This document shows, piece by piece, positions 51,535 to 63,274 of a stretch of DNA of 64,000 nt. The stretch lies in contig URCS01000001.1 of the NCBI GenBank assembly GCA_900546455.1, forward strand, positions 3,040 through 67,039. Reading direction: 5' to 3'. The stretch comes from an uncultured Collinsella sp. (lineage in GTDB: Bacteria > Actinomycetota > Coriobacteriia > Coriobacteriales > Coriobacteriaceae). The notes beneath the pieces are model-generated. The model made no database searches and was not told where the DNA came from. It saw only the letters and a program-made list of their open reading frames with translations. Position 1 is the stretch's first letter; every line of letters starts with the position of its first letter. The position numbers were made by a program, and so were the translations under genes.

Positions 51535-51754
51535 GATACTTCCCCTTCTATGTGTTCGCACACACGACCGTGGTAACGAATCGACCCGCCGGATGCGGAC
51601 CGTGAGGGAACTATACGGCGGGTTTTGGGCGGGCTTGAGCAGAGGCTGCGCGGTTTGGTAAACGTGCTAAAGCTGGCGGTAAACGGTAGGTAAAGGTGGT
51701 TACCTTATGAAGATACCAGTACAACGTAGTCGCAGGTCAAAAGCGGTATAAACT

Positions 51755-51770
51755 GCTAAAACGCTTTAGC
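51755..51770. promoter_or_regulatory. 16-bp near-palindrome GCTAAAACGCTTTAGC upstream of ppdK (candidate operator)
   Basis: Central-CG dyad of LacI/cre-like shape, about 220 nt upstream of the ppdK start. It shares TAAAACGCTT with the adhE-upstream repeat. Confidence 0.35.
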
Positions 51771-51866
51771 AAAAAGCTGTAATTATTGGAATGGAATCTC
51801 TTAAACTACGCAATAGCCAAGAAAGACAAAATCTATCAGAAGTATTTGTCCCAGGGATTTTGGTCA

Positions 51867-51885
51867 GAGTAGCTAATTTGGGACG
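51867..51885. repeat. Left copy of the 19-bp perfect inverted repeat bracketing the insert (GAGTAGCTAATTTGGGACG)
   Basis: Exact reverse complement of 63251-63269, read directly from the sequence. Confidence 0.85.
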
Positions 51886-51960
51886 GGGCTATTTTAGCCA
51901 CCCCGGCAGATAGCGCGAATGCTTTGGCGGAGTAACGGCCGGGGTAGCTAAAAAAGCCCC
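51885..51960. repeat. Long imperfect hairpin (22-nt arms, 20/22 paired, about 32-nt loop)
   Basis: GGGGCTATTTTAGCCACCCCGG ... CCGGGGTAGCTAAAAAAGCCCC, immediately adjacent to the left inverted-repeat copy. Confidence 0.6.
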
Positions 51961-52280
51961 ATTACAGTTTGAGTCGTCCGAAAGGGCGGCTCCTTACTAG
52001 TTCTGGTAATACGATTGAGCCGTACCGATGGTCGCTGGCCGACCGCGACCGCGACGCGGCCTCCACCCGAGACCCCCATCTCGACACATAGCCCGTCATC
52101 CGACGAAAGCGCGCAGGTCGTCCTGTATAGGCGCATGGTGTCCCCCTCCGCCGCAAGAGGGAAACGAAAAAGCCCCTCTTTGCCACTACGGACAAAAGGG
52201 GCCTCCCAGGGGAAACGTGTTACAAAGCCTTCTTTGCAGGACGATGAAGATCAGAAACCCAACGTCGTACGCGTAGGGAC

Positions 52281-52980
52281 TTACCCAACACCCACGCCAT
52301 TTCGATCTTCTGGGCCTTCAACGCCACGTCCCGATAAGCATCCGGGCATCGGAATGACCTCGTCGCAAGCCGCAAGCATCTCTTCGTCATGAGTGACAAC
52401 AATTACAATATGGTCTCTCTTAACCTCATGAAGCAATTTAATTAGCGCGCTCCGGCTCTTCGCATCAAGCGCTGAAGTTGACTCAAGAAACAACATGACG
52501 TCCGGCGATTTCAACATCTGCCGCACAATTGCGATGTTCTGCTTCTCCCCGCCGGACACCCCTCCTTTCTTGCTGCCAAGCATCGCTGCCGCCCCGTTCT
52601 CCGCAGCGGCAATCATTTTGTCTAACCCCAATATGGCAAGCATCCGATTCAGTTTGTCGGCCTCGAAATCATCAGAAAGCAGCGTAAGATTATCGAGGAT
52701 CGTCCCCCCAACAATAGGGGGCTCTTGCTCCGTAATGCCAACTCGGCACCGCCGCAATGCGTATCGGTCGATGCGACGCTGTGATACCCCGTTGTAGAGG
52801 ACGGCCCCTTCCGTGTTATCTGGATATAGACCCAATATCACTGACAGCAGCGAGCTCTTCCCCGAGCCATTTCTTCTTGCTTACTGTTTTTCTTATATTG
52901 TAACGATTTTCGATAAGAGGAAAGATTACTCCATGACGCGCAAGCCCGAACTCTAAGCGTTTCCCATCAGCATTGCCCAT
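52281..52980 (-). pseudogene. Disrupted ABC transporter ATP-binding domain (frameshift and deletion before Walker A; foreign C-terminal end)
   Basis: The 186-aa ORF has the signature VSGGEKQ, Walker B VMLFLESTSALD and H-loop VTHD, but its Walker A (NGSGKSSLLSV) lies behind a stop codon or in another frame. The upstream 54-codon ORF (MGNADGKRLEF...) is out of frame. The tail after DEVIPM is GC-rich non-ABC sequence. Confidence 0.7.
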
Positions 52981-54586
52981 TTTTCGGATCGAAATCCAAA
53001 TCCAGCTTCCTATCGCATGCTGAAATCAAATCCTGATCATGGCTTACAACAAGAATTAGCTGATCGAAGGGATTTCGATGAATATACTCCGTGAACTCCC
53101 GACGGCTTTCTTCATCTAAATCGTTCGTTGGTTCATCGAACACAAGCACTTCCGGCTGCCTGCGAAGTGCTGCGAATATCCTTAGCTTTCGATACTCTCC
53201 ACCAGAAAGGTCTCTACAATTCTTGCCTTTTAACGATTCGACGGTTCGATAGAAACTCGGCACAAGCTCTCGGAGGTTTTCGCTCGATCCCCGAATCGAC
53301 GTCCTCTCAAGGTAATTCTCCACCGTTTCGTTCGGAATAAAGAGCTTTTGCGGGCACACCGCAAACAGGTCCCGTCGGATCGTCTCCATATCGAGCTCTT
53401 CATATGGCACCGACCCCAAAGCCCGATGTCCCCCAGCAGAATATAGTCCAAGGAGCACCTTCAGAAACGTGCTTTTTCCGCATCCGTTCGGCCCGGTAAT
53501 GGCATAGGTTTTTCCTTCCTCCACCTCCACGGAGAGGTCGCGGTATAAGTAGGGCTTTCCCGCGTATCGGTACGCGATGTTGGACAACGATATGCTCTCC
53601 ACGTGCCCAACCGTGAGGGTGCCGCGGTCCTCGGCGTCCTCCGTCAGAGCCCCCAATCGGTCGAACGAGGCCCTTGCGTCCTGATACGATTTGAAATAAT
53701 TCAAAAAATACTTGAAGCATCCGAACGCCATCGAGTAATACGAGTTCACCATTGTGAACTCGCCTAAGCTCATTCTTCCGCTCAATATTTCCATCCCGGA
53801 GATCACGAGCAGTGCCCCCCGAAACACAGACGAGATCAGGCCGTCGCTTGATGTGGCCAGATTCGAGACCCTACTTGCTTTCATGTAAATCGGGTAGTAC
53901 CCCTCGAATACCCCTTTGAGCGTCCGAGCGCTCTGGTTATATGCGCCATCGCACTTAATGTCAAACAACTGCGACAGCTCGCCGCTCACGGACGCGAAAA
54001 GCTTACTCAAACCCTCCTTGTTCGCAAGCGAACTGTTGTACAACGGCTTTTTCAACGCCCTGAATAAAATGAAGTACGCAACAAGCGAACATGCACTTAA
54101 CACCAGGAACACCGGATTAATCGAAAACAGGATGATGCATATCAACACAACCAGAACGATGTTAAGCCCGATCGTCAGGAAGTTGTTCACGACAAACGAT
54201 GACACCGCATTCGAATCCGCATACACCCTCTGCGTTGTATAGGATGGATCCGCCTGCTCCCCCTTTTCCAGGGGCCCCCGTTCAAACGACTCACACGTGG
54301 TCCCCATCAGTCTCGTCGTCATCTCCAAGATGACGCGCGATACGTTCACACCCATCGCATACGACATGAAGGAGGCCGATATCCCTATGCCCGCAACAAA
54401 GGCCGCAAACCACACGACGCGAGATGGATCCCTATTCGTCACGAGAAAGTCTACAAACCCACCGTTTAAGGCGGGCATGACGCACGAGAGAGCAAAATTC
54501 ACCAGCATGAGAATCACGAAAAGCCGTGACCCTTTACACCGAAACAACTCGTGAACCGTCTTCTTAAACATGCCAGCTCCCATCAA
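52967..54586 (-). CDS. ABC exporter, fused permease-ATPase half-transporter (no peptidase domain)
   Basis: N-terminal six-TM-type region, Walker A GPNGCGKST, signature LSGGEYRK, Walker B VLVFDEPTNDLD. Start could be 54583 or 54571. Confidence 0.9.
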   Translation of the reverse strand: MMGAGMFKKTVHELFRCKGSRLFVILMLVNFALSCVMPALNGGFVDFLVTNRDPSRVVWFAAFVAGIGISASFMSYAMGVNVSRVILEMTTRLMGTTCESFERGPLEKGEQADPSYTTQRVYADSNAVSSFVVNNFLTIGLNIVLVVLICIILFSINPVFLVLSACSLVAYFILFRALKKPLYNSSLANKEGLSKLFASVSGELSQLFDIKCDGAYNQSARTLKGVFEGYYPIYMKASRVSNLATSSDGLISSVFRGALLVISGMEILSGRMSLGEFTMVNSYYSMAFGCFKYFLNYFKSYQDARASFDRLGALTEDAEDRGTLTVGHVESISLSNIAYRYAGKPYLYRDLSVEVEEGKTYAITGPNGCGKSTFLKVLLGLYSAGGHRALGSVPYEELDMETIRRDLFAVCPQKLFIPNETVENYLERTSIRGSSENLRELVPSFYRTVESLKGKNCRDLSGGEYRKLRIFAALRRQPEVLVFDEPTNDLDEESRREFTEYIHRNPFDQLILVVSHDQDLISACDRKLDLDFDPKNGQC

Positions 54587-62658: not shown

Positions 62659-62684
62659 AGCATCCGTCATACGAAAGCAGGTCA

Positions 62685-62722
62685 ATAGGCTGCGCGCCAC
62701 TCTCTGATGACGCGCAGCCTAT
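62685..62722 (+). terminator. Perfect 12-bp stem-loop after the methyltransferase gene (terminator-like)
   Basis: ATAGGCTGCGCG, 14 nt, CGCGCAGCCTAT, then CTCATTTCC. Confidence 0.55.
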
Positions 62723-62925
62723 CTCATTTCCCCCGCGCTTTACCGAGCCCGACTCACACCTCATAGTTGGCACCGGTTTTCAAAATGCAAGATTCCGCAT
62801 ACAAAATCACTTCTTCTGTCTAGGTGGCAGACCTACGATTTTTGTAGTATAAAGTTCCTCTCAATGCCTTCAATCTATTTCGAGATTGAGAAGAACTTGC
62901 ATCGGGTTTCATAGAAGCGATATAG

Positions 62926-63055
62926 ATGATACGTTTTGTCCTATCTATATTCCGACATACATCAGGATGCCTCGTCTTTATCGTCATTTCAATAGTCGGC
63001 TTGGCCCTTTCCCACATTGCCCCCTTTTTGAACGGTAAATTAATTGACTTCCCGC
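62926..63055 (+). pseudogene. N-terminal stump (about 43 codons) of an ABC half-transporter paralogous to 52967..54586
   Basis: IFRHTSGCLVFIVISIVGLALSHIAPFLNGKLIDF aligns with LFRCKGSRLFVILMLVNFALSCVMPALNGGFVDF of the intact exporter. The similarity stops where the sequence turns GC-rich, at about 63055. Confidence 0.55.
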
Positions 63056-63250
63056 ACGTGGACCTCGTGGACAGGCCCCCTTGTGTAGCTGCACCCGAGG
63101 CGCCTCCCCGTCGCCCTCCAGCGCCGGGGTTCCCCTCCATCACGAAGAGGTAATCCCCGTCCGGCCTCGCCGTCTCTGCAACGCCGAGCCTCCCGAGCGA
63201 CTCGAGGAGGGCGGGCTCGTCCCAGGAGATTTGACAATACTATAGAGACA

Positions 63251-63269
63251 CGTCCCAAATTAGCTACTC
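63251..63269. repeat. Right copy of the 19-bp perfect inverted repeat bracketing the insert (CGTCCCAAATTAGCTACTC)
   Basis: Exact reverse complement of 51867-51885. It lies 5 nt from the stop codon of the PDRP gene. Confidence 0.85.
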
Positions 63270-63274
63270 AGTAG

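Follow-up and report, generated by a model that had tools for sequence, protein, structure and literature searches.

What separates the two genes of a regulatory pair that normally stand side by side, and how did the intervening DNA reach its site? The question is raised by a stretch of 64,000 nucleotides from an uncultured Collinsella sp. (GenBank assembly GCA_900546455.1, contig URCS01000001.1, positions 3,040 to 67,039; hereafter the window, whose own numbering is used below). Its source belongs to the Collinsella aerofaciens group, and its PpdK protein is 96-98% identical to those of many Collinsella genomes. In the window, the gene for pyruvate, phosphate dikinase (ppdK, 48784-51561, minus strand) and that for the pyruvate, phosphate dikinase regulatory protein (PDRP; 63275-64000, minus strand, continuing past the window end; PF03618, 1.3e-65) are co-oriented but 11.7 kb apart. 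Both are intact: the former encodes all three PPDK Pfam domains (PF01326, PF00391 and PF02896), and the latter, a DUF299/Kinase-PPPase gene, encodes 291 aa in full, as seen in contigs that reach past the window end. An earlier note made from the letters alone had taken the interval 51577-63274 for an old, rearranged insert. We find that 51961-63251 is a foreign insertion in the loop of a hairpin in the PDRP-ppdK spacer, that it has spread recently, and that it carries two modules predicted to make modified peptides. The best explanation of the whole, to which we assign a probability of roughly 0.75, is a horizontally acquired composite island that spreads by recombination in its flanks.

The insertion was delimited by comparison with genomes in which the site is empty. 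When one genome per species was scanned, 80 loci around ppdK relatives were obtained. The PDRP gene lies upstream of ppdK, its end being ~230-390 nt away, in 30 Collinsella species representatives, and the pair stands side by side in more distant Coriobacteriia and some Firmicutes as well. The direct adjacency that characterizes the PDRP-PPDK pair is thus present in relatives and lost in the window, and the synteny comparison proposed in the earlier note bears out its view of a co-oriented pair split by some 11.7 kb of AT-richer DNA. In the empty-site locus L004, the two stretches that match the window adjoin each other, at locus positions 9766 and 9768. Alignments of this kind place the borders of the island at 51961 and 63251 (11,291 bp), with a junction ambiguity of at most 1 nt. 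The insert proposed earlier is therefore real, but its limits were too wide: 51577-51960 is native, made up of ppdK upstream DNA (51562-51866, minus strand, aligning with the spacer of empty-site genomes) and of the hairpin element. An empty site that can be identified, presence or absence among relatives, and many carriers that share the same junctions are what is expected of a horizontally acquired island.

The interrupted element is a palindrome resembling repetitive extragenic palindromic (REP) sequences. Its first arm, its loop and the first 24 nt of its second arm lie at 51867-51960 (inverted repeat I1, with a 33-nt arm motif), and empty-site alignment identifies the remaining 18 nt of the second arm, GTCCCAAATTAGCTACTC, at 63252-63269, beside the PDRP stop codon. 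The long perfect palindrome is intact between PDRP and ppdK in loci L043, L010 and L013, and that of L043 folds at -82.7 kcal/mol (z = -11). When 51961-63251 is removed in silico, the hairpin becomes perfect again, at -88.4 kcal/mol. Each arm is a 33-nt mini-hairpin, GTAGCTAATTTGGGACGGGGCTTTTTTAGCTAC, which occurs in single copies in other Collinsella intergenic regions; sites were recorded at 51867-51900 of the window, at L001:1636-1668 and L013:650-682, and in L027 and L028. Because the arm motif recurs in this way, the target is best described as a REP-like repeated element, with the island in the loop of one copy. Inverted pairs of GTAGCTAATTTGGGACGGGGCTTTTTTAGCTAC in the spacer between PDRP and ppdK were seen in some species only, and Y1_Tnp (IS200/RAYT-type) genes lie near some GTAGCTAATTTGGGACGGGGCTTTTTTAGCTAC-related loci (L093, L094, L097 and L100). 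The possibility that the island is ancestral and was lost elsewhere was considered and rejected, since the hairpin is intact and perfect in the empty sites and the composition of the island is foreign.

No target duplication, terminal inverted repeat or direct repeat was found at the island ends; a weak direct repeat, AGGGCGG(G)CTC, near both ends is too short to carry weight. Pfam-type domain searches found no integrase or transposase domain in the island, a tRNA/tmRNA scan of the whole window found none, and Rfam at E≤1 gave no match over 51300-64000, in agreement with the earlier statement that integrase, transposase and tRNA genes are missing from the borders. The classical hallmarks of an island (adjoining tRNA gene, integrase gene, flanking direct repeats) are thus lacking, as are those of an integrative, mobilisable element (a recombinase of its own, att sites and a circular form), there being no recombinase gene. 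The island has no match in a phage collection. Its sole match in a plasmid collection is a 900-kb C. aerofaciens 'plasmid 6' record, which was dismissed as an instance of plasmid carriage because its genes, including rplS, glyS and ppdK, show it to be a piece of chromosome. One further locus, L025 (1-2396), is a contig of a metagenome-assembled Collinsella genome at 1.7x coverage, in which 2.3 kb of unrelated DNA of 42% GC is fused inside the 5' end of ppdK; it was set aside from the comparisons as probably a chimeric assembly.

Composition sets the island apart from its host as well. Its GC content is 0.515, compared with 0.607±0.005 (minimum 0.597) in 163 other windows of 11.3 kb, and the GC profile drops from 0.60-0.66 in the flanks to 0.43-0.55 between ppdK and PDRP, except for a GC-rich patch at 57.5-58.7 kb. 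GC at third codon positions (GC3) is 0.44-0.66 in island genes versus 0.85 in ppdK and 0.73 in PDRP; the AAA/(AAA+AAG) ratio is 0.58 versus 0.08 in the flanks, and GAA/(GAA+GAG) is 0.46 versus 0.06. The sliding GC and codon-usage plots called for in the earlier note therefore do reveal a discontinuity, of the sort expected of horizontally acquired DNA. Its claim that the insert favors AAA, GAA, TTT and ATT codons holds for AAA and GAA but not for TTT, the use of which is 0.47 in island and flanks alike and does not discriminate. The three GC-rich patches that it listed are all real (51.96-52.3 kb; 57.5-58.7 kb, with GC 0.61-0.68; 63.06-63.25 kb).

The age of the island is revealed by comparisons among its carriers. 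A public assembly collection lists the exact protein sequences of its two radical SAM enzymes in >4,300 and >4,600 blocks, and of 20 long contigs examined, 19 have the island at the same ppdK/PDRP site. Across carrier contigs it is 99.4-99.9% identical to the window, while distal ppdK and PDRP are only 90-96% identical. Identity in sliding windows is ~100% over the island and then falls to ~90-93% at points specific to each contig, on the left at ~50.0-50.5 kb or ~51.5 kb, within ppdK, and on the right at 63.3 kb or as much as several kb inside glyS/glyQ. The flanks of the carriers are nearest to differing island-free species representatives; thus, glyS/glyQ of L095 are 99.9% identical to those of L019. 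The carriers include two isolate genomes (loci L106 and L020), namely RefSeq NZ_OY725717.1, with 99.9% identity along the entire island, and C. aerofaciens RTP21357st2. They show the same difference between island and flank identity, which is therefore not an effect of metagenome assembly. A young block in old, diverged backgrounds, with flanking tracts of variable length, bears the signature of transfer through homologous recombination in the core genes on either side. The identity patterns show a gene-specific sweep, with recent spread among diverged Collinsella lineages, and not an old vertical relic. C. aerofaciens itself comprises many clades as defined by average nucleotide identity (PMC10039858).

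The island is also a mosaic, as the earlier note had proposed, and natural variants support this by marking its seams. Its modules occur separately elsewhere. Locus L087, another chromosomal island, matches window 52519-57953 at 99.4% and 58332-59577 at 97.9% identity; it holds the first peptide module (module 1) and a DUF1648 gene but not the second (module 2); a Phage_integrase gene lies at the edge of this island, which also contains a NikA-like gene. In many genomes, among them that of an isolate, the 722-bp DUF1648 cassette (58856-59577) is found alone at 99.3-99.7% identity; it lies between a CoaBC region and a two-component-system/ATP-binding cassette (ABC) locus, and biosynthetic genes are absent from its surroundings. 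L087 corresponds to this same locus with module 1 added. Neighbors of the lone cassette (L130-L135 and L137-L139, ~9970-10695) encode a 604-aa ABC-type ATPase, a histidine kinase/response regulator pair and an ABC transporter, and in L130 a direct repeat, CGAGCCCCAAGAAACTGCGCTGT, lies on either side of it. The lone cassette has the look of a mobile orphan immunity gene.

The GC-rich right terminus (63076-63251) is common to other islands: 186 bp (63076-63261), at 95% identity, also form the end of islands at another place in the chromosome, near clpB and downstream of an M20 peptidase gene. In L126, L127 and L129 the same island, from at least 56572 to its right end, occupies this second site at 98-99% identity. 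In L113, L118, L121 and L122 the site holds 8.9 kb of other cargo (AbiH, AAA_15/AAA_21 ATPases, DUF4365 and NYN), followed by DUF1648. This candidate anti-phage block (for example, L122:1423-10330), bounded by the 186-bp terminus and DUF1648, lies near a RelB/PIN pair. At both chromosomal sites the terminus abuts the same 10 nt, AATTTGGGAC, a core also given as GTCCCAAATT, which hints at a site-specific step in the history of the island.

Some strains have lost module 2, or have a truncated first gene of it. Insertion sequences (IS) mark further positions: IS110 at 57544/57545 (L088, L096 and L099), IS256 at 58034-58042 with a 9-bp duplication (L082 and L093), and IS3 at 52184-52188 (L095), all of them in non-coding or remnant parts and none in biosynthetic genes. 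Among these parts are a GC-rich left-end segment (51961-52280), with a doubtful minus-strand open reading frame (ORF) of 62 aa and no Pfam, NCBIfam, PHROG or Rfam match, and a 5'-truncated ABC ATPase gene (52281-52841, minus strand) that covers only positions 512-674 of the 696 in TIGR03375, is devoid of a Walker A motif and membrane domain, and is cut further to 111-145 aa in some strains. This remnant substantiates the first of two gene fragments claimed earlier; the second, at 62926-63055, has no detectable homology. The earlier report of about 1 kb of ORF-free DNA corresponds to an otherwise ORF-poor stretch that holds a 162-aa ORF (57914-58402, minus strand) of apparently high-GC origin (GC 0.70, GC3 0.84), host-like or higher in GC, which sits between two low-GC cassettes and is flanked in some strains by the IS110 and IS256 insertions. 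Pfam, NCBIfam and PHROG searches gave no match for this ORF, the 62-aa left-end ORF, a 138-aa open frame at the right end or a 54-aa ORF at 52816-52980. Among all non-carrier loci and in the remainder of the window, sensitive blastn searches with the end segments and the GC patch matched L087 only.

How the island reached its present distribution can be explained in other ways. The earlier note favored an old, decaying acquisition, inherited vertically and lost or never gained elsewhere. The gene fragment, ORF-poor stretches, GC patches and lack of mobility genes fit such a history, and the deletion variants and IS insertions show ongoing erosion. It is, however, at odds with an island that is near-identical among carriers whose flanks differ by 4-10%, with the variable breakpoints, with the affiliation of carriers with different island-free species representatives, and with a composition that is not ameliorated, still 9 GC points below that of the host; the word 'old' has to be given up, and we consider this history very improbable. 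Even less credit is due to an assembly artefact, be it a chimeric contig or the collapse of sequence common to co-existing strains. While most comparison contigs are metagenome assemblies, and L025 does look chimeric, the same structure is present in the isolates NZ_OY725717.1 (at full length) and RTP21357st2 and in many independent samples and assemblers.

A more serious alternative is a non-autonomous integrative element, repeatedly inserted in a site-specific manner into the REP-like motif by a recombinase acting in trans (a tyrosine integrase or an IS110-type or Y1/RAYT-type enzyme), with flank recombination not the main route. It would account for an insertion exactly in the loop of a hairpin motif repeated in the genome and for the same right terminus and 10 nt at the second site, where they also bound other defense-gene cargo; module 1 lies in L087 with Phage_integrase and NikA-like genes, and Y1_Tnp and IS110 genes are present in these genomes. 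On the other hand, near-identity that runs variable distances into ppdK and PDRP/glyS would not arise from independent insertions, the two ends carry no direct repeats, and the left end was not seen at the second site. The predicted circular junction, in which the right end is joined to the left, is absent from the metagenome contigs, a weak negative as this junction may include the 10-nt core. We regard such an element as unlikely, although distinctly less so than the other two alternatives. Spread by flank recombination is thus preferred, with points that weigh against it as a complete account. The same terminus and 10 nt at a second site mean that flank recombination is not the whole story. 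In a wider sample some island alleles differ by 1-3%, so that not one very recent clone is present everywhere; in that sample the PDRP flank is 88-94% identical, the divergence of the island being far smaller. Finally, the route by which the island entered is not shown, as neither target duplication, terminal repeat nor recombinase marks it. In this account, the comparisons show that the island, which has no mobility gene of its own, entered the loop of the REP-like hairpin, and the identity patterns show that it now moves between diverged Collinsella lineages, mainly via homologous recombination in the adjoining core genes.

The cargo is purely accessory, as claimed earlier: domain matches identify two loci resembling those for peptides that are made ribosomally and modified post-translationally (RiPPs), an exporter and immunity-like membrane proteins. 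Module 1 begins with an ABC exporter gene (52967-54571, minus strand; PF00664 and PF00005), a fused permease and ATPase without peptidase domain, which occupies the same position as the ABC gene in cassettes of this type in Firmicutes and whose product shares 35% identity, along its entire length, with the ABC protein of module-2-type cassettes. It is followed by a gene for a small DUF3784 membrane protein (54668-55048, minus strand; PF12650, 3.5e-5, below the Pfam cut-off), with a same-position gene in L110. On the plus strand lie the gene of a 297-aa protein with a PqqD domain, that is, a RiPP recognition element (RRE) (55198-56091; PF05402, 1.3e-8, residues 40-102, the C-terminal ~190 aa being without assignment), and that of radical SAM enzyme 1 (56091-57137; PF04055, 2.5e-17), which has the motif CNLRCLHC, no Cys beyond approximately residue 185, and 45-56% identity to 'radical SAM/SPASM' proteins of Firmicutes. 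The two genes are kept together in relatives.

Directly downstream, a plus-strand gene preceded by a strong AAGGAG ribosome-binding site encodes a candidate precursor peptide of 60 aa (57150-57332) with the leader MYETPEVEK and a hydrophobic core free of Cys; a GC-rich, terminator-like hairpin follows it (57469-57506, plus strand; inverted repeat I3, 16-nt arms, 94% complementary). Peptides at the same position in relatives are 61-62 aa long and start with an invariant MYExPEV.K, including one from a Firmicute with 28-30% GC. Relatives of the module, at 45-56% identity and mostly from Firmicutes, have the order ABC, PqqD protein, radical SAM and peptide, and then a helix-turn-helix regulator and SdpI. 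As far as sequence can tell, module 1 is a putative RiPP cassette of a family centered in Firmicutes.

Module 2 consists of three plus-strand genes. The first encodes a 241-aa DUF5969 protein (59722-60447; PF19394), the candidate substrate or precursor, in which a disordered (A/V)NANA repeat (residues ~99-154; NANAVTNANIILNANGMANANANAQNNAN) separates a folded N domain from a folded C domain. In the AlphaFold2 model, the predicted local distance difference test (pLDDT) score exceeds 85 in both domains and is below 50 in the repeat, and a Foldseek search of this model against the PDB returned nothing better than E = 0.06. The family is small, with 51 clusters in 1.84 billion representatives; its members have the three-part layout in common, and the Asn-repeat pattern is kept in 20 of them. 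The second gene encodes radical SAM enzyme 2 (60444-61523), a YydG-like candidate peptide epimerase for which TIGR04078 is the best NCBIfam model (2e-27, below cut-off) and YydG entries are the only PDB matches (e.g., 8AI1, 1e-13). The third encodes an AerE-like/HemK-like amide N-methyltransferase (61516-62658; MTS and PrmC-type models), with AerE as best PDB match (7RC2, 1.9e-6). Its YxGxDS and NPP motifs align with Y137, D141 and N231 of AerE, and F234 is replaced by Leu, on the evidence of the alignment. A hairpin that is terminator-like in both directions follows (62685-62722; inverted repeat I4, 15-nt arms, 93% complementary).

Five relatives of module 2, at 38-55% identity (L101-L105), all keep the trio of DUF5969, radical SAM and methyltransferase genes, and L101 and L103-L105 also have an ABC exporter gene, a DUF1648 gene or both; the L102 contig starts 200 nt upstream of its DUF5969-like gene, so that neither of these would be visible there. 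The closest diverged version (radical SAM 55%), in L101 and L102 (~4000-8900), is a block of 44-49% GC beside DNA of 65-67% GC that encodes ParA-like, sigma-70 region 4 and HTH_17 proteins, a setting that suggests another high-GC actinobacterium carrying it on a plasmid or an integrative element.

What module 2 might do can be considered in the light of proteusin biosynthesis. AerE N-methylates D-Asn side chains in aeronamide, and proteusin N-methyltransferases recognize Asn that is flanked by small neutral residues and has Asn at +2/-2 (PMC9060474). The most likely chemistry of module 2 would be radical SAM epimerization followed by side-chain N-methylation of the repeat Asn, as in proteusins; its logic would thus be proteusin-like, with a different epimerase family and an unusual substrate protein. 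A bolder proposal is that module 2 represents an undescribed proteusin-like RiPP class of Actinobacteria, in which the YydG-type enzyme epimerizes the (A/V)NANA repeat and the AerE-like enzyme then N-methylates the resulting D-Asn to give a polytheonamide-like, membrane-active product, the sweep and the orphan DUF1648 cassettes reflecting a contest between bacteriocin and immunity in the human gut. This we advance tentatively, as a possibility with the odds somewhat against it.

The DUF1648 gene (58897-59550, minus strand, within the cassette 58856-59577; PF07853, 9e-13) lies divergently upstream of the module 2 trio, and DUF1648 or SdpI genes accompany both types of cassette in relatives. With ABC export, and with DUF1648 for self-protection, carriers would gain a competitive advantage, which would account for the sweep. 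To be set against such a role of the island is that its production of an antibacterial peptide is putative, and that the DUF1648 protein may confer immunity on the grounds of SdpI likeness and gene neighborhood only. Radical SAM enzyme 2 reaches 96.5 bits with TIGR04078, for which the cut-off is 300. There is no protease gene in module 2, and the ABC protein is without peptidase domain; for a RiPP precursor, the putative substrate is unusual in its 241 aa and in the folded domain at its C terminus.

As for the genes that the island separates, PDRP, of the DUF299 family, controls PPDK by phosphorylation of the protein, in trans. Regulation of PPDK is thus independent of gene adjacency, and as both genes are intact, the insertion is probably neutral, or of little consequence, in this respect. 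The native upstream DNA still beside ppdK amounts to ~390 nt, including the hairpin element and a palindrome; the spacer of relatives, at 230-390 nt, in several cases already holds a strong hairpin (-83 kcal/mol). The palindrome, TGCTAAAACGCTTTAGCA, is perfect over 18 bp (51754-51771, ~200 nt upstream of ppdK) and has a single copy in the window as against 0 expected. It may be the operator of a ppdK-specific regulator; one half-site, TAAAGCGNTTTAGCA, is kept in the other Collinsella species. A scan for consensus promoters and terminators gave site counts not above those in shuffled sequence and is thus uninformative on transcription units; the transcriptional uncoupling of the two genes put forward in the earlier note is hypothetical. 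On the other side of ppdK, a 2.9-kb segment at 45851-48783, between rplS and ppdK, contains a minus-strand ORF of 943 aa (45862-48693) without Pfam match and with a weak NCBIfam 'serine-rich protein' match only. It is found in the window, L081, L001 and L028 and is missing from most island carriers, in which rplS directly follows ppdK. With its host-like GC of 0.59, it is a second strain-variable indel adjoining ppdK.

C. aerofaciens is a prevalent and very diverse species complex of the human gut, and the island provides a worked example of a gene-specific sweep. Its defined site and its natural variants (module deletions, IS insertions, a second site and a lone cassette) make the selective value of the cargo directly testable. 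If active, both peptide systems would be candidates for roles in strain competition and colonization resistance in the gut. An epimerase-type radical SAM enzyme, an AerE-like methyltransferase and an Asn-repeat protein together represent the logic behind pore-forming proteusins, compounds that were not reported from gut Actinobacteria in the literature searched; no papers were found on DUF5969, and literature on Collinsella radical SAM/RiPP and bacteriocin clusters contained nothing on this locus. Should the bolder proposal for module 2 hold, its product would be made by one of the commonest human gut actinobacteria.

In proteusins such as polytheonamide and aeronamide, a PoyD/AerD-type radical SAM epimerase and a PoyE/AerE-type D-Asn N-methyltransferase act on an Asn-rich core (PMC9060474). 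Module 2 is similar in that a radical SAM enzyme of an epimerase family adjoins an N-methyltransferase whose closest solved relative is AerE and which, from its sequence, keeps the catalytic Tyr, Asp and Asn; in its candidate substrate, Asn and small neutral residues alternate, Asn recurring at +2 and -2. In contrast, its radical SAM enzyme is nearest to YydG, of another epimerase family than PoyD/AerD, and neither C-methyltransferase genes nor a protease gene are present. Instead of an NHLP/Nif11 leader with a C-terminal core, the 241-aa candidate has its repeat between two folded domains; no NCBIfam leader model matches, the N domain having only a loosely similar F..DP..YL..G motif, and the host is a gut actinobacterium. 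Epipeptides, represented by Bacillus YydF, which is modified by the radical SAM epimerase YydG, are akin to module 2 through radical SAM enzyme 2, for which YydG is the best NCBIfam model and the only solved relative. However, the score lies far below the cut-off, the candidate substrate is unrelated to the short YydF, of which no similar peptide is present, an N-methyltransferase is added and a YydH-type protease is missing.

Module 1 resembles RRE (PqqD)-dependent radical SAM/SPASM systems, including sactipeptides and ranthipeptides, in its PqqD protein, its radical SAM enzyme with a CxxxCxxC motif, its short precursor and its ABC exporter, to which relatives add an SdpI-type immunity gene. 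It differs from them in that the precursor gene follows the enzyme gene instead of preceding it. Because neither the precursor nor the C-terminal half of the enzyme, where SPASM clusters bind, contains Cys, module 1 is not a sactipeptide or ranthipeptide system, and its cross-link chemistry must differ. The N-terminal domain of SdpI-family membrane proteins is of the DUF1648 type, which links the island gene to SdpI-type immunity proteins, although no SdpR-like regulator adjoins it; the occurrence of the identical cassette without biosynthetic genes in many genomes is reminiscent of orphan bacteriocin immunity genes.

Bacteriocin and other accessory islands without mobility genes are exchanged through recombination in flanking genes, as in streptococcal capsule and bacteriocin loci and in gene-specific sweeps. 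The island between ppdK and PDRP has in common with them its foreign composition, its presence or absence at one fixed site, a near-identical block with variable breakpoints in the flanks, and cargo for production, export and immunity. It is unlike them in sitting in the loop of a REP-like hairpin, in having its terminus also at a second site, and in being a composite of two unrelated RiPP cassettes and a high-GC gene. It thus belongs to a known type, the bacteriocin-type genomic island spread by flank recombination, and its part of greatest novelty is the proteusin-like module 2, along with the widespread lone DUF1648 cassette.

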